From: Octopus vulgaris
Lineage: Eukaryota
DNA: 64,000 bases
Direction of reading: 5' to 3'
Assembly (NCBI GenBank): GCA_951406725.2
Contig: OX597817.1
Span: 26,722,001 to 26,786,000 of the forward strand
The translations under genes were made by a program, and so were the position numbers. Below are positions 2,765 to 31,740 of this stretch, in pieces; the stretch's first letter is position 1, and the number at the start of each line of letters is the position of its first letter. A model generated the notes under the pieces. The model did no database searches. It had not been told where the DNA came from and saw only the letters and a program-made list of their open reading frames with translations.

Positions 2765-2831
2765 GTACCGCTACGTATGTAAAAATGTATATGTATATAT
2801 ATATATGCGTGTGTGTGTGTGTATACGCACG

Positions 2832-2868
<37 letters not shown>

Positions 2869-2947
2869 GTAAAAAAGGTTTCCTTCCCTCTCACAATATA
2901 TATATGTATGTGTGTGTGTGTGTATACCCACGCACACGGACACACAA

Positions 2948-2982
<35 letters not shown>

Positions 2983-3185
2983 TATATATGTAAAAAAGGT
3001 TTCCCTCCCTCTCACAATATATATATATATATGTATATATGTATGTGTGTGTGTGTGTACACACAAACATATATATATATATATAGATATATAATATGTA
3101 AAAAAGGTATCTCTCCCTCTCAAAATATATATATGAGTGTGTGTGTAATTGTGTTCGGGAGTGTGTGTTTGTATATATGTAAAAA
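2765..3185 (+). repeat. Three to four ~120-bp tandem units of mixed unique/microsatellite sequence
   Basis: GTAAAAAAGGT(T/A)TC..TCCCTCTCA(C/A)AATATATAT recurs at ~2869, ~2990 and ~3098. Confidence 0.7.
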
Positions 3186-3854
3186 GTGTGTATGTTTCTA
3201 TGTACATATGTGTGAGTGTGTATATCATCATTTTATGTCCATTTTTCATGCTGGCATGAATGGAATGGTTTGGCAGGATTAGAAAAAAAAAAGATGTAAA
3301 ATGAGAATATACACACTCATATACACATTTTACATATGTATCTTTAAAATAGCTATTTAGACTAGTTTATTGCTTACATTATTTGGTTTTCCACCATGGG
3401 AAAAAATGACAAATCTATGACATCCTGAATGCTACTTGGTGGACACCAACAACAGGTGTATAATACATATTAATATCCTAAATGTATAATCTTTGAAATT
3501 ATCTGATATTGCCACGAGCCGAATGTGTTATGTATGGATATTGAAACAACAGCTAACATAAAACTTCTGCTAATAGCTGGTGAGGATATGACGAAGAAAT
3601 GAGAGAAACAAGGAGAAAGAGAGAAAGAGAACGAGAGAGAGAGAGAGGGGGAGGAAGACAGAGAGATTGTATATCTAATATGTATATGTGTATGTGTGTG
3701 TCTATGCACACACACACTCACACACACACACAAACACACATATACATATATATATATATGAATAAATAAATGGAGTTTATACACTCATCTATTTATATAT
3801 ATGTATATATATATATATATAAATACATATATATATCAGTTGTATATATGTATA

Positions 3855-3896
<42 letters not shown>

Positions 3897-3935
3897 AAAA
3901 AAGGTTTGAAAATGCAATTTAAACGATGTTTATTT

Positions 3936-3976
3936 ACTTAACCGGTTTCACTCTTTGGTAAAAGATTGTCAAAAGT
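3936..3976 (-). ncRNA. Mirror copy of the minimal hammerhead ribozyme
   Basis: Reverse complement of 10247-10287. Confidence 0.7.
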
Positions 3977-5359
3977 TACATTTAAGGAAACATTGAATAA
4001 TATGGGTTCAAAAAAGTTTTTTACATAATTGTCACATTGAATATTATGCATTCAAAAAAGTTTTTTACATAATTGTCACATTGGATATTATGGGTTCAAA
4101 AAAGTTTTTTACATAATTGTCACATTGAATATTATGCATTCAAAAAAGTTTTTTACATAATTGTCACATTGGATATTATGAATTCAAAAATGTTTTTTTA
4201 TACATAATTGTCACATTATTTGGGAAAATTTGGCAGAAAAGGATAAAACAAATATATTATTGGGAATTGGTTGCGTTAATTATTGGTTGTCGCAAATTGT
4301 CACATTACATGTATATATATACAATCTTTGGTATATATATACAGCGTTTTGACAGCAAAAATTAAAATAGATTTTTTGTCCATCTCAGAATATTTTAAGT
4401 ATGTTTTTACTGACCTGTTAGTATTAGCAGAAAGGCTGAACTGAGAGAACAGAAGTAGCCAATGTGGTGTATACTTCCCCTTTATGCATGAATGATTTTG
4501 GGGTTATCAGGAGGTTAGTATGCGGGTGTGAATAGATGTGTCCGTGCCTGCTGGTCAGACAGCGTCTGTTTGTCACACACATATATATACACACAAACAC
4601 ACACACACACAACAACACACACACACACACACATAGTATACAAACACAAACCACATACAGACAACACACACACACACAGAACACACACACCCACACACAA
4701 CGCACCCACATATATCACATATATACACAGCACACAAATATAACATGTATCTATATATAATATACACAGATATATAACACACATACACACACACACACAC
4801 AACACACGCACACATACATACATAATATAAATATCACACAAATACACCTAGCATATATATATACACACATACAATACACACATACAGCATGTAAGTAATA
4901 TACATACACAATATATGCATGCAATATACATACGCAATACATACATACAATATATATATATATAGACAATGCATATACATATATACACACATACATATAA
5001 ATAGTGTTTACATACACATACATAGATGTACCACATATACACACAACACACATACATACAATGCATACACATACACGTACGCATACATATAATATATATA
5101 TACACACACACACACATAACATACATACACACACAATGCATACATATATATACACGCAATGCATATACATGTATTCATGCACATATAGCACACCTACAAT
5201 ATACATATATACAGTGCACACATACACACAAATATATACACTTAATTGTACACGTACATATACAATACACATACATACAATATACATATATACAATGCGC
5301 ATGCAAATAATGTACATGTTTATACACACATAAACATGCAAATAAACACACACACACAT

Positions 5360-5412
<53 letters not shown>

Positions 5413-5614
5413 TACATACATACATGCACATACATATATTTTTTCACACACATACACACACACATATATATATAAAAAATTCACCACCCCCACACACACA
5501 AATTACAAACCTATAGCGTACACACTCAAATATATCTCTACATGCCGCACATACACACAAACAAAGTACTAACATATACACACATACCATGCATATACAC
5601 ACACAACACACACA

Positions 5615-5652
<38 letters not shown>

Positions 5653-5686
5653 ATACATATGTAAATACATACACACGTATACAATG

Positions 5687-5730
<44 letters not shown>

Positions 5731-6014
5731 GCACACACACACACACATATATACACACGTGCACACACACAAACACATACAACGCGCGCACACACACATA
5801 TACACACACACGCACACAGTGCACACACACACACACACACATATATCACCTACATATATATAATGCATGCGTGTGCATGCCACGTATGTGTGCGGTCAAT
5901 GCCCGCTAGTGTGTCCTATGCGTGCCGATGCGCGCATGTGCCCGCACCGCACGATATGCTGTGAGCGTGCGCGCGTCCCTGTGTGCTTGCTCTGGATGTG
6001 CTTCCAGGGGTATG

Positions 6015-7205
6015 TTAGAGTATGTTTAGTTGTGGTCTGTATTTTTGAATAAGATTACTTTCCTTATTTATTCGTGTTTGGTCTGTGGTGTTGTCCGAGC
6101 ATTGGTATAGTGGGAAGACTAAGAATTTGGGGGACTTATTGTGTGCACAAAGGTCTAAGTGTCCACTTAGTGGTATCTGTCTTGTGGAGGGGTCCCTCAG
6201 TTGTTGTCGGTGAACTGTCATTCTGTCTCTGAGGGTAAGGCTCGTTTGCCCTATGTAGTCTTCGTGGCATCCTTCACACCTTATGACGTAGAGTAAATTT
6301 TTTGATGCGCACGTGAAGTTATTTTTTATGATGAATGTGTGTCCCGAGTGGAACTTGTACGACGATCCCTCAATGAGGTGGATGCAGGTCTTACAGTTGG
6401 GGCGACCACATTTTTTGATGGTGGGCGGTGGGTTTGTGTTGTGTAATTTTGCGTTGGTGAGTAGGTTTTTAGGGATTTAGGTTGTCTCTTACTTTTTATT
6501 ATTTTATGAGCTGCCAGTATTTTTTTCAGGCGTGGGTCTTGATTTAGTTGTGGAATGTTGTTGTATATAATAGTGTAAGCTTCTGCATTCCTTGGGTTGT
6601 GTGTTGAGAGATAAGGAGGCTATTGACTGTACTGTGGATGTGTTTGGGTTTTCGAAGGTCTTGAATGTTGATTGATTTGGCCCGTTCTATTCCGTTGTCT
6701 ACTAGTGATGCCGGGTAATGTCTTTCGAGAAGAATTGCCCTTAGTTCCCGGAGTCTTCTATTTCGTGTTGTGTCATTTGAGACAATAGTGCAGATTCTTC
6801 TCGCTAGGTTGAAGGGGATATTTGTCTTTGTGTGTTTTGGGTGATTGGAGGTGAATAGAAGGTATTGTTTAGAGTCAGTGGGTTTGTAATGGATGTCAGT
6901 TTCAATGTTGACGCCTTTTTAATGATTAGGATGTCAAGAAAAGGGAGTTGGTCCTGACTATATTCCATTGTGAATTGAATGTTGTTATTTACACTGTTGA
7001 TAAGGTTTTTGAAGTCTATAAGTTGGTCGAGTGTGTGGGACCATAGGATGAGGCAATCATCTAAGTAGCGTTTCCAGTTCTCCAACAGGTATTTGTGGAA
7101 AGACTGGCCGTACTTATATTTGGATTTTTCATAGATATGTGATTCCAGGTAGGCCATCACCAGGTTTGCATAGGTAGGTGCAACTTTCGTACCCATTGCA
7201 GTCCC
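6015..7205 (-). pseudogene. Mirror copy of the Penelope-like RT/GIY-YIG ORF
   Basis: Near-identical reverse complement of 7222-8414 (ORF track 6804..7196 and 6015..6221). It shares the A5 frameshift (6466-6470) and has extra 1-nt homopolymer indels at 6916-6920 and 6615-6616. Confidence 0.92.
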
Positions 7206-7221
7206 TGAGACAGGGACTGCA

Positions 7222-8414
7222 GGGACTGCAATGGGTACGAAAGTTGCACCTACCTATGCAAACCTGGTGATGGCCTACCTGGAATCACATATCTATGAAA
7301 AATCCAAATATAAGTACGGCCAGTCTTTCCACAAATACCTGTTGGAGAACTGGAAACGCTACTTAGATGATTGCCTCATCCTATGGTCCCACACACTCGA
7401 CCAACTTATAGACTTCAAAAACCTTATCAACAGTGTAAATAACAACATTCAATTCACAATGGAATATAGTCAGGACCAACTCCCTTTTCTTGACATCCTA
7501 ATCATTAAAAAAGGCGTCAACATTGAAACTGACATCCATTACAAACCCACTGACTCTAAACAATACCTTCTATTCACCTCCAATCACCCAAAACACACAA
7601 AGACAAATATCCCCTTCAACCTAGCGAGAAGAATCTGCACTATTGTCTCAAATGACACAACACGAAATAGAAGACTCCGGGAACTAAGGGCAATTCTTCT
7701 CGAAAGACATTACCCGGCATCACTAGTAGACAACGGAATAGAACGGGCCAAATCAATCAACATTCAAGACCTTCGAAAACCCAAACACATCCACAGTACA
7801 GTCAATAGCCTCCCTTATCTCTCAACACACAACCCAAGGAATGCAGAAGCTTACACTATTATATACAACAACATTCCACAACTAAATCAAGACCCACGCC
7901 TGAAAAAAATACTGGCAGCTCATAAAATAATAAAAAGTAAGAGACAACCTAAATCCCTAAAAACCTACTCACCAACGCAAAATTACACAACACAAACCCA
8001 CCGCCCACCATCAAAAAATGTGGTCGCCCCAACTGTAAGACCTGCATCCACCTCATTGAGGGATCGTCGTACAAGTTCCACTCGGGACACACATTCATCA
8101 TAAAAAATAACTTCACGTGCGCATCAAAAAATTTACTCTACGTCATAAGGTGTGAAGGATGCCACGAAGACTACATAGGGCAAACGAGCCTTACCCTCAG
8201 AGACAGAATGACAGTTCACCGACAACAACTGAGGGACCCCTCCACAAGACAGATACCACTAAGTGGACACTTAGACCTTTGTGCACACAATAAGTCCCCC
8301 AAATTCTTAGTCTTCCCACTATACCAATGCTCGGACAACACCACAGACCAAACACGAATAAATAAGGAAAGTAATCTTATTCAAAAATACAGACCACAAC
8401 TAAACATACTCTAA
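7222..8414 (+). pseudogene. 5'-truncated Penelope-like (Neptune-type) RT + Cys-rich linker + GIY-YIG endonuclease; one -1 frameshift at A5 run 7959-7963
   Basis: RT motifs GTAMGTKVAPTYANL, WKRYLDDCL, FTME...LPFLDILI, YKPTD, HPKH. After the shift: KCGRPNCKTC (from 8019), FTCASKNLLYVIRCEGCHEDYIGQT (GIY-YIG, 8133-8180), RMTVHR, ESNLIQKYRPQLN, then stop at 8414. Confidence 0.93.
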
Positions 8415-8564
8415 CATACCCCCTGGAAGCACATCCAGAGCAAGCACACAGGGACGCGCGCACGCTCACAGCATATCGTGCGGGCGGGCACATGCGCGCA
8501 TCGGCACGCATAGGACACACTAGCGGGCATTGACCGCACACATACGTGGCATGCACACGCATGC

Positions 8565-8777
8565 ATTATATATATGTAGGTGATATATGTGTGTGTGTGT
8601 GTGTGCACTGTGTGCGTGTGTGTGTATATGTGTGTGTGCGCGCGTTGTATGTGTTTGTGTGTGTGCACGTGTGTATATATGTGTGTGTGTGTGTGCACTG
8701 TGTGCGGGTGTGTGTGTATGTGTGTGTGTGTGTGTGTGTGAGCATTGTATACGTGTGTATGTATTTACATATGTATC

Positions 8778-8813
<36 letters not shown>

Positions 8814-9648
8814 TGTGTGTGTTGTGTGTGTATATGCATGGTATGTGTGTATATGTTAGTACTTTGTTTGTGTGTATGTGCGGCATGTAGAGATATATTT
8901 GAGTGTGTACGCTATAGGTTTGTAATTTGTGTGTGTGGGGGGTGGTGAATTTTTTATATATATATGTGTGTGTGTATGTGTGCACTGTATATATGTATAT
9001 TGTAGGTGTGCTATATGTGCATGAATACATGTATATGCATTGCGTGTATATATATGTATGCATTGTGTGTGTATGTATGTTATGTGTGTGTGTGTGTATA
9101 TATATATTATATGTATGCGTACGTGTATGTGTATGCATTGTATGTATGTGTGTTGTGTGTATATGTGGTACATCTATGTATGTGTATGTAAACACTATTT
9201 ATATGTATGTGTGTATATATGTATATGCATTGTCTATATATATATATATTGTATGTATGTATTGCGTATGTATATTGCATGCATATATTGTGTATGTATA
9301 TTACTTACATGCTGTATGTGTGTATTGTATGTGTATGTAAACACTATTTATATGTATATGTGTGATATATGTATTTATTTGTGTGATATTTATATTATGT
9401 ATGTATGTGTGCGTGTGTTGTGTGTGTGTGTGTGTATGTGTGTTATATATCTGTGTATATTATATATAGATACATGTTATATTTGTGTGCTGTGTATATA
9501 TGTGATATATGTGGGTGCGTTGTGTGTGGGTGTGTGTGTTCTGTGTGTGTGTGTGTTGTCTGTATGTGGTTTGTGTTTGTATACTATGTGTGTGTGTGTG
9601 TGTGTTGTTGTGTGTGTGTGTGTGTTTGTGTGTATATATATGTGTGTG
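8565..9648 (+). repeat. Degenerate (TG/TA)n microsatellite block inside the Penelope-like 3' UTR (mirror 4574-5862)
   Basis: Low-complexity TG/TA sequence present in both palindrome arms with matching interruptions. Confidence 0.85.
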
Positions 9649-10004
9649 ACAAACAGACGCTGTCTGACCAGCAGGCACGGACACATCTATTCACACCCGC
9701 ATACTAACCTCCTGATAACCCCAAAATCATTCATGCATAAAGGGGAAGTATACACCACATTGGCTACTTCTGTTCTCTCAGTTCAGCCTTTCTGCTAATA
9801 CTAACAGGTCAGTAAAAACATACTTAAAATATTCTGAGATGGACAAAAAATCTATTTTAATTTTTGCTGTCAAAACGCTGTATATATATACCAAAGATTG
9901 TATATATATACATGTAATGTGACAATTTGCGACAACCAATAATTAACGCAACCAATTCCCAATAATATATTTGTTTTATCCTTTTCTGCCAAATTTTCCC
10001 AAAT

Positions 10005-10233
10005 AATGTGACAATTATGTATAAAAAAACATTTTTGAATTCATAATATCCAATGTGACAATTATGTAAAAAACTTTTTTGAATGCATAATATTCAATGT
10101 GACAATTATGTAAAAAACTTTTTTTGAACCCATAATATCCAATGTGACAATTATGTAAAAAACTTTTTTGAATGCATAATATTCAATGTGACAATTATGT
10201 AAAAAACTTTTTTGAACCCATATTATTCAATGT
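10005..10233 (+). repeat. ~44-bp minisatellite, ~5 copies, in the element 3' region (mirror at ~3990-4218)
   Basis: Unit AATGTGACAATTATGTAAAAAACTTTTTTGAA(TGC/CCC)ATAATAT(T/C)C starting at ~10005, 10052, 10096, 10141 and 10185. Confidence 0.9.
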
Positions 10234-10246
10234 TTCCTTAAATGTA

Positions 10247-10287
10247 ACTTTTGACAATCTTTTACCAAAGAGTGAAACCGGTTAAGT
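10247..10287 (+). ncRNA. Minimal type I hammerhead ribozyme, U3-A8 core variant, in the Penelope-like terminal repeat
   Basis: ACUU(stem I)-UUGACAA-UCUUU UACC AAAGA(stem II)-GU-GAAAC-CG-GUU^-AAGU(stem I), with palindromic ACCGGU stem III. Folded by eye. Confidence 0.7.
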
Positions 10288-10364
10288 AAATAAACATCGT
10301 TTAAATTGCATTTTCAAACCTTTTTTCTTATATAATCCCACTCGTGCGATACCCCACAACTCAA

Positions 10365-10459
<95 letters not shown>

Positions 10460-10578
10460 ATATATATATATATATGTATGCATGTATATTTAGATATATA
10501 TGTATATGTATATGTACAAACACACACATGAACATATGTATATATATTTCTGTATCTATATAAATATATATAAATATG

Positions 10579-10644
<66 letters not shown>

Positions 10645-11105
10645 CATACTTACCATACAGTAAATGTGTCCCAGAAAGGTAATGTCATAGATGATTATAT
10701 ATATATATATATATATATTAGTCCATGAACATGCTGTTTATAAGCAATGTGGTAAGTGCTTCGTTGCCATGCATTAAAGTTCATGTGTGTGTTTGTACAC
10801 AGTGTTTTTTTTTAACATGTTGTTTTTGTATCTATTACTATTTGTAGTTCATATTCTTGAACAAAGAACAAATAACATGTAAGGAAAGTATTCTTCTTAA
10901 ATTTCTCTTGGGAATCTTTTCCAAATGTAAGACATTAGAATAACTGCTTTTCACCTTCATTTAAATGCTTGTTGCGCGTTTATCTAATACCTTTTTTCTT
11001 TTTTTTCACATTCTTAAGACATTTCATTGCTCTTCACTTAATCTCATCCATAATCATCTATGACATTACCTTTCTGGGACACATTTACTGTATGATAAGT
11101 ATGAG

Positions 11106-11140
<35 letters not shown>

Positions 11141-11403
11141 GTATACATATTTATATATATTTGTATAAATACACAAATATATGAACAAATGTTCATGTGT
11201 GTGTTTGTACATTTACATGTGCATACATATCTAAATATACATACATATATACATATATACATACACACACACACACACACACATATATATGCATATATGT
11301 ATATATATATATATATATATTTGTGTGTTCGTGTGTGCATGTGTGCATATATGTGTGCATGTATACATGCATACATACATATATATATATGTATGTATGT
11401 ATG

Positions 11404-11438
<35 letters not shown>

Positions 11439-11579
11439 GGGGGGAGGTTATGAGAGGTAATGGTGTCATTAAGACCCAAAGTTGTCAGATAATGCTGAGT
11501 AAGTGCTATGGATAGACCATAGTTAAGCTCCAGGTTTGGTGATTATGCAAATAAGGAGTCCAACGTAGGTTATATATCA

Positions 11580-12370: not shown

Positions 12371-12881
12371 GTAGCTTGCTTACAAACCACATGGTTCCGG
12401 GTTCAGTTCCACTGTGTGGCACCTTGGGCAAGTGTCTTCTACTATAGCCTTGGGCCGACAAAAGCCTTGTGAGTGGATTTGGTAGACGGAAAATGAAAGA
12501 AGCCCATCGTATATATGTATATATGTATGTGTGTGTGTATGTATTTGTATGTATGTGTTTGTCCCCCCAACATCGCTTGACAACTAAATAGTTATTTTAA
12601 AGATACATATGTAAAATGTGTGTGTATGAGTGTGTATATTCTCATTTTTCATCTTTTTTTCCAATCCTGCCAAACCATTCCTTTCATGCCAGCATGAAAA
12701 ATGGACATAAAATGATGATATACACACTCACATATATGTACATAGAAACATACACACTTTTACATATATACACACAATTACACACACACTCATATATATA
12801 TATATTGTGAGAGGGAGCGATACCTTTTTTACATATGTATATATACATATGTATATTTATATATATATATGTGTGCGTGCG

Positions 12882-12919
<38 letters not shown>

Positions 12920-13030
12920 TAACTTACTAAGCTTACAAAGAATAAGTCCTGGGGGCAATTTGCTCGACTAAAGGTGGTGCTCTAGCATGGCCACAGTCAA
13001 ATGACTGAAACAAGTAAGAGAGTAAAGAGT
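12371..13030 (+). mobile_element. SINE family A interrupted by a ~330-bp templated insertion (12584-12915)
   Basis: 5' part runs to TTGACAAC (12585); 3' part resumes at ~12925 (GCTTACAAAGAATAAGTCC..AAGAG). Confidence 0.75.
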
Positions 13031-30951: not shown

Positions 30952-31740
30952 AGGCAGCAAGCTGGCAGTTTCATTAGCACTCGGGGCGAAATGCTTAGCG
31001 GTATTTCATCTGCCACTACATTCTGAGTTCAAATTCCACCGAGGTTGACATTGCCTTTCATCCTTTCGGGGTCGATTAAATAAGTACCAGTTACGTACTG
31101 GGGTCGATATAATTGACTTAATCTGTTTGTCCGTCCTTGTTTGTCTGCTCTGTGTTTAGCCCCTTATGGGTAGTAAAGAAAAAGGGATTTCGTCTGTCGT
31201 TACGTTCTGAGTTCAAATTCCGCTGAAGTTGACTTTGCTTTTCATCCTTTCGGGGTCGATCAAATAAGTACCAGTTACGCACTGGGGTCGATATAATCGA
31301 CTTAATCCCTTTGTCTGTCCTTGTTTGTCCTCTCTGTGTTTAGCCCCTTATGGGTAGTAAAGAAAAAGTGATTTCGTCTGTCGTTACGTTGTGAGTTCAA
31401 ATTCTGCTGATGTCGACTTTGCTTTTCATCCTTTTGGGGTCGATTAAATAAGTACCAGTTACGTACTAGGGTCGATATAATTGACTTAATCTGTTTGTCT
31501 GTCCTTGTTTGTCCACTCTGTGTTTATCCCCTTGTGGGTAGTAAAGAAATAGGTATTTCGTCTGCCACTACATTCTGAGTTCAAATTCCGCCGAGGTCAA
31601 CTTTGCCTTTCATCCTTTCGGGGTCAATTGAATAAGTAGCAGTTACGTACTGGGGTCGATATAATTGACTTAATCTGTTTGTCTGTCCTTGTTTGTCCTC
31701 TCTGTGTTTAGCCCCTTGTGGGTAGTAAAGATATAGGTAT
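30952..31740 (+). mobile_element. SINE family B expanded into a 4-unit tandem array (~184 bp unit)
   Basis: ATTTC(A/G)TCTG..GAGTTCAAATTC..GGGTAGTAAAGA units starting at ~31003, ~31188, ~31371 and ~31555. Confidence 0.85.

Follow-up and report, generated by a model that had tools for sequence, protein, structure and literature searches.

A 64,000-nt stretch of the Octopus vulgaris genome (contig OX597817.1, positions 26,722,001 to 26,786,000; hereafter the window, in whose coordinates all positions below are given) contains a 6.5-kb head-to-head palindrome that consists of two mirror-image, 5'-truncated copies of a Neptune-type Penelope-like element (PLE). The explanation that we favor, with fair but far from complete confidence, is that this palindrome of a young element formed at insertion: the first strand of complementary DNA (cDNA) would have stopped inside the reverse transcriptase (RT) gene, snapped back and been copied on itself.

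Two near-identical arms end at the element boundary

The left arm, delimited by the alignment of the arms and by its match to the uncut family up to 7211, spans 3890..7211 on the minus strand (3322 nt), while the right arm spans 7220..10332 on the plus strand (3113 nt); the former would be the first-strand cDNA and the latter its self-primed second strand. Both hold the 3' half of a PLE, that is, the RT from GTAMG onward, the full Cys linker, the GIY-YIG endonuclease and a 1.9-kb 3' untranslated region (UTR). Global alignment of the reverse-complemented left side with the right side gave 3110 matches and 3 substitutions, and with these domains present in both arms the head-to-head layout described in the original prediction is borne out. 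A chance origin of the mirror symmetry is ruled out by the more than 3000 matching positions. From the centre to 8560, all 1337 aligned positions are identical between the arms apart from a few 1-nt gaps, and 12 nt separate the perfect arms. The symmetry ends at the element 3' end, beyond which the flanks, compared over 190 nt per side, have nothing but TA/TG repeats in common, and a palindrome that ends in this way between unrelated flanks counts for a snap-back coupled to insertion. Both outer ends had been described as running into (TA)n. This holds directly for the left end, which meets a tract at 3861..3894, but at the right end 36 unique nt (10335..10370, plus strand) come before the tract at 10371..10451.

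The remaining differences between the arms are few. Outside one patch in the right arm there are ten indels of 1-2 nt, nine of them within base or dinucleotide runs. Relative to the left arm, the right arm carries a 230-nt deletion between 14-nt direct repeats, which bound the corresponding left-only segment of 3' UTR (5231..5460, minus strand). The patch itself, at about 9331..9375 on the plus strand, is a mosaic in which 27 nt match the sequence from 9182 onward and 12 nt that from 9501 onward; at this position the left arm holds the replaced segment, with a unique hexamer. We read the 230-nt loss, the mosaic patch and a 9-nt duplication at the centre as slip-type changes, all derived in the right arm.

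Both arms share one donor

The element family is abundant in sequencing runs: among 24 listed runs, 20, which come from nine studies, contain no less than half of the words sampled from it, and no RNA run is listed as containing the family. Contigs of four of these 24 runs (X2, X7, X14 and X15) were compared with positions 7170-8560 of the window. One X2 contig matches 7220-7638 with no differences, which indicates that the family is young. Family contigs differ from the window at 38 places, and at all 38 the two arms share the same letter, an agreement that shows that both arms derive from one common donor. At position 7967 the major letter in all four runs differs from that of the window, which both arms share, and an extra A after 7958, found in most of the contig depth of all four runs, is missing from both arms. 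One X15 contig joins 8080 to 8042 with a single letter between them, either a 39-nt duplication or a fold-back of another copy. A 33-nt pattern from the element 3' end had no matches in metagenome contigs.

The centre suggests an order of synthesis

At the fold-back centre (7197..7221, plus strand), both the sequence and a DNA fold give an 11-bp stem with a 3-nt loop at 7208-7210: positions 7211-7221 pair with 7197-7207, and C7211 lies opposite G7207 across the loop. The base that follows interrupts the stem, yet would find its partner if the terminal CA re-paired 9 nt back, and such re-pairing would produce both the 9-nt duplication (7211-7219, plus strand, a duplicate of 7220-7228) and the beginning of the extended right arm.

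Upstream of 7220 the sequence of the uncut family goes on, as seen in the loose ends of contigs from X7 and X2 before 7220 and, mirrored, from X15 behind 7211. The loose-end letters agree in these three of the four runs and are mixed in the X14 consensus. Their complement matches 7208-7211 and no further, which makes the left arm 4 nt longer than the right. The arms were originally thought to be cut at the same nucleotide; instead, the left arm follows the uncut element 4 nt beyond the right arm. Synthesis in the opposite direction would require 4 nt that are missing from the right arm, and we infer from the letters of the junction that one strand began at the left (TA)n, continued along the left arm and, via the fold-back, was extended into the right arm. 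The junction thus supports the fold-back and self-priming proposed in the original prediction and gives it a direction, left arm first, although the idea is not new in kind. The depth that X15 and X7 show over the bin 7170-7216 may reflect contigs that fit the mirrored place, and we do not count it as support for the junction.

A model for snap-back during insertion

In the proposed mechanism, the GIY-YIG endonuclease would nick the left (TA)n tract, which is itself seen in the sequence, and the freed end would prime reverse transcription at the TA-rich 3' end of the RNA. First-strand synthesis would stop at 7211, inside the RT gene; its last C would pair with G7207, 10 nt would be added, and the end would slip back 9 nt through CA re-pairing. 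Copying, by the PLE RT or by a host repair polymerase, would then proceed to the element end, with 230 nt skipped and a template switch around 9331-9375. The new end may have been joined to the far side of the break by TA pairing. Alternatively, it may have annealed to a short second cDNA that started from the other nick, in which case the 36-nt extension would be a PLE tail. This extension could be either a PLE tail or target-site DNA. It is 64% A+C, occurs at the right end only and has no second copy in the window; its length lies within the 30-40 nt of PLE tails (PMC8557442, PMC11167929), yet of the 83 intervals that separate TA tracts elsewhere in the window, 23 likewise measure 20-60 nt, some of them non-repetitive. 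If it is target DNA, simple joining of the copied strand by TA pairing would suffice, while a tail would require a second priming event at the other nick.

It is possible, though we put it forward tentatively and would not call it probable, that cDNA snap-back from a 1-bp hairpin, slipping recopy and capture by a second cDNA at the other nick is the routine way in which PLEs prime their second strand. If so, a single mechanism would account for inverted pseudo-long terminal repeats (pLTRs), the one-sided tail and kilobase palindromes, an antisense RNA template would be unneeded, and the element family would seed its genome with multi-kb palindromes in TA tracts. A prediction follows from the order recorded in the junction of the window palindrome: across family copies, the arm that bears the loop should lack a tail and keep the donor sequence, and the other arm should carry slips and the tail. 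Given a young family with many copies in public runs, this polarity can be checked with existing long reads. Cruciform fragility and hairpin double-stranded RNA are plausible but speculative effects of such palindromes.

Evidence against the model and alternative explanations

An older inverted duplication (3022-3360 and 12584-12921) brackets the palindrome, with a core of 171 matches, 6 mismatches and 6 gap positions. The right copy lies within a dispersed repeat (12369 to about 13050) and takes the place of about 60 nt of it; this repeat resembles an octopus short interspersed nuclear element and may be one. Since this older inverted copy links the two sides, it suggests that the left and right flanks are true neighbours. 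A second older inverted pair (10404-10698 and 11050-11320), 351 nt apart, starts in the right (TA)n and has a core in which 55 of 56 positions are identical.

Several findings weigh against formation by snap-back at insertion. First, hairpin priming would have to begin from a single base pair. Second, the left coding arm has three 1-nt losses (opposite 7507, 7812 and 8419) and the right arm does not share them, which counts against strict left-to-right copying because the right-arm copy should carry them, barring consensus errors or later changes; the losses are best read, by assumption, as consensus errors. Third, the 36-nt extension cannot be a copy of the left arm. Fourth, a minority of family contigs has the letter that the arms share at 7967, and the absence of an A near 7959 from both arms may reflect a systematic error in a run, so that these two positions speak for a common donor and not for copied RT errors. 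Fifth, with two older inverted duplications next to the element, the host seems able to produce inverted copies at this place without it. Sixth, in the one related locus with a comparable layout (L085, described below), the left (distal) arm runs into a noisy contig end with 13 small insertions. Lastly, and weakly, no contig in the four runs crosses the centre, though the runs may come from other individuals and contigs drop rare variants.

Among the alternatives, later host repair fares best, although we consider it unlikely. The insertion would have broken inside the RT gene, and the broken strand would have folded back, been extended by copying as far as the (TA)n and then jumped to a TA tract farther downstream, with deletion of the 5' part of the element. 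Repair synthesis typically leaves slips and mosaics where there are short repeats, and two older local inverted duplications lie beside the site, one of them within a dispersed repeat of which about 60 nt were replaced. Hairpin-derived foldbacks are also seen at L1 retrotransposition breaks (PMC11702581). Repair, however, would have had to halt its copying exactly at the element end; head-to-head inverted copies recur as a trait of PLEs, and an element young enough to match an X2 contig over 7220-7638 without a difference would have left little time for a later event.

The locus is probably real rather than an artefact. A fold-back read or amplification chimera, assembled via the repeat into the 3' end and flank of another copy, is a slightly poorer candidate than host repair. 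The junction has no independent support in the four runs, the small indels within runs resemble a noisy long-read consensus, and near-identical family copies could bridge loci. Foldbacks make up about 0.55-0.6% of Oxford Nanopore Technologies reads of genomic DNA (PMC12870357). Such a chimera would not be expected to stop its mirror at the element boundary, and the 9-nt slip and the mosaic patch require a polymerase; the layout also agrees with published PLE structure, and the flanks are linked by the older inverted copy, a segment compared within the window.

Less probable again are twin cDNAs: one would start at each nick, both from a single donor, and their 3' ends would be joined without any long stretch of self-copying, the distal part of the right arm stemming from a second RNA. 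They would account for the one-sided 36-nt extension and for the differences in the UTR, and an anole PLE protein does extend both strands (PMC11167929), but two stops within 4 nt of each other are unlikely, and the loop and slip duplication are marks of a fold-back. The favored model already allows for a hybrid in which snap-back is combined with a short second cDNA. Two independent insertions that came to lie head-to-head by chance, which the original prediction had found hard to credit, can be set aside even in so abundant a family, since they are largely refuted by the same alleles at 38 of 38 variable places, the centre holds no (TA)n target, and the truncation points lie only 4 nt apart.

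Comparison with published systems

The architecture and the idea of self-priming are already known for PLEs. Penelope of Adineta vaga forms abundant inverted-repeat structures, mostly head-to-head and with palindromes at the junctions, which were read as self-priming on an antisense template (PMC3846280). Like the palindrome described here, these structures carry microhomology-mediated deletions; their optional tail of about 31 nt at one end may have a counterpart in the 36-nt extension. In A. vaga, however, the inverted parts described are mostly pLTRs of about 200 nt beside a longer copy, whereas the arms in the window are 3.1-3.3 kb with no full-length copy; and an antisense template, which was favored in that study, need not be invoked for the junction in the window beyond the cDNA, which is antisense by nature and can explain it.

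An inverted, 5'-truncated adjacent copy is 'often' found in PLEs, and a one-sided tail and (TA)n targeting are among their usual traits (PMC8557442), a source that also notes the difficulty which these structures cause in assemblies. The window insertion shares with Neptune, Nematis and Naiad, as described in that source, 5' truncation, an inverted truncated copy, (TA)n targets, a CX2-5CxxC linker and the Cys pair of the GIY-YIG domain; it differs in having no partial tandem and, in its retained part, no hammerhead core. The Poseidon PLE protein of Anolis (PAc), from another clade, nicks and extends both strands at an AT-rich target and starts reverse transcription at two sites that bound the tail (PMC11167929). 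A second cDNA at the other nick would fit this extension of both strands; second-strand steps are outside the tests of that study, and inverted copies are not addressed in the sections of it considered here.

Outside PLEs, snap-back of cDNA is reported at R2 5' junctions, where the cDNA 3' end primes on the cDNA itself before the junction forms (PMC11371274); R2 is a non-long terminal repeat protein in an engineered system, and the passages of that paper that concern these junctions do not show a symmetric insertion made by copying the cDNA over its full length. At L1 foldback junctions, the cDNA end anneals to itself and forms a hairpin (PMC11702581), but there the foldbacks mirror chromosomal flanks after replication, whereas in the window the mirror ends at the element end.

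Second-strand synthesis and the formation of tandem and inverted PLE structures are stated as open in the relevant sections of PMC8557442, PMC11167929 and PMC3846280. In the literature on mechanism and on cephalopod PLEs, within a coverage that excludes most subscription papers, among them the Penelope papers of 2001-2006, we found no description of the window family or of a PLE cDNA snap-back junction at nucleotide level; PMC12910113, PMC8969392 and bioRxiv 10.64898/2026.07.22.740005 had nothing on the junction mechanism in the parts covered. New at this locus are the size and symmetry of the palindrome and an unusually legible junction, from which the order of synthesis can be read and which makes cDNA the simplest antisense template.

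The element is Neptune-type by its motifs

The coding part of the right arm begins with the C-terminal half and thumb of the RT (7222..7959, plus strand), with GTAMG, YLDD and FLD motifs, 76% identity to the protein P0003 and an RVT_1 match (E 0.004) below the Pfam cut-off. In both arms the RT reading frame is interrupted within an A run near 7959. There follow the linker motif (8019..8045, plus strand), a CX4CxxC (CGRPNCKTC) with a spacer of Neptune-like length, 24 amino acids, to the next Cys, and the GIY-YIG endonuclease (8139..8414, plus strand; stop at 8412-8414), which has two Cys inside its core and matches PF01541 above the cut-off (E 3e-5). The 3' UTR (8415..10332, plus strand) consists of a TG/TA-rich low-complexity stretch, a unique block and, near the element 3' end, a 44-nt tandem repeat (10005-10233, 5.1 copies with an 89-nt higher order, and 3990-4217 in the left arm). 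A search with residues 17-262 matched 433 longer proteins, of which P0003 (772 amino acids) was the best, with 76% identity over these residues and 78% over linker and nuclease; named eukaryotic matches were bivalve proteins at about 47-50% identity.

The order of an RT followed by a C-terminal GIY-YIG endonuclease (EN) in one open reading frame (ORF) is that of EN+ PLEs, the window copy being frameshifted in the A run where family contigs have the extra A. The CCHH signature with two Cys between GIY and YIG is present (YVIRCEGCHEDYIG, with His 89 and 106 of P0002, conserved in alignment A1), and CGRPNCKTC conforms to the CX2-5CxxC linker between RT and EN of the Neptune clade. The linker is full-length and not of the reduced Nematis form: the spacer between CxxC and the next Cys has a similar length in two of two Neptune rows and is shorter than 10 amino acids in two of two Nematis rows of the supplement of PMC8557442. 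In both the window and P0003 the EN is C-terminal, unlike the N-terminal EN of Naiad/Chlamys, and the element lacks the Hydra-clade features (no CCHH; a CxCX5C linker). The insertion is an inverted pair only, with no pLTR formed by a partial tandem; the inverted 5'-truncated copy at the 5' end is a frequent, optional trait of EN+ PLEs, and (TA)n on both sides provides the microsatellite target typical of the Neptune clade. The element is Neptune-type, an assignment made by motif, and Neptune itself is paraphyletic (PMC8557442). A DNA transposon or miniature inverted-repeat transposable element is ruled out by the RT-EN coding content.

Such elements were expected to carry hammerheads, a typical though not universal feature of the pLTR of EN+ PLEs, but in the retained part, which lacks the element 5' half, three core patterns based on the hammerhead consensus had no matches on either strand of 3000-11500. 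Of 13 relatives, 7 have a match to the strict hammerhead pattern beyond the end of the ORF. Rfam reported no hammerhead in the window or in 15 relatives, a blank that is uninformative given the pattern matches in relatives. Rfam gave 122 matches on 3000-11500, none at the gathering score (121 microRNA models and 1 small nucleolar RNA). ARAGORN predicted no genes.

Related loci and the surrounding window

We compared 130 related loci, 73 from metagenome and 57 from genome contigs. One (L085) has a head-to-head palindrome containing coding remnants, a count that gives no estimate of frequency, because short assemblies collapse long palindromes and 67 of the 130 loci are shorter than 6 kb. The locus (L085:1-4862) holds a distant PLE with an intact product of 800 amino acids, without the Cys linker and with a hammerhead-like core. 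In front of it come a truncated copy in tandem and an arm inverted head-to-head. The 10 nt that form the central loop of this locus are native to the inverted, longer arm, and its arms are identical over 776 nt, sharing 4 substitutions absent from its full copy. We regard it as a parallel to the centre of the window palindrome, and neither as proof nor as clean support. The contig is filed in a bacterial metagenome-assembled genome and is likely eukaryotic DNA in the bin. Imperfect palindromes with loops of 30-39 nt lie near PLE-like RT genes in L107:1885-2324 (441 nt, 93%) and in L111-L114 at about 8610-9528 (889 nt, 91-92%). In all, 57 PLE-like RT loci (L074-L130) are in prokaryotic genome bins, many as repeated arrays in one bin, and are probably host DNA. 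No relatives were found in viral contigs.

Elsewhere in the window, 2795-3134 consists of degenerate tandem units of roughly 100-120 nt, three of which have A6-GGT after a TA run, resembling the terminal letters of the element; this may be chance. Further away, a 184-nt tandem repeat occupies 31000-31740 in 4 copies with 90% matches.

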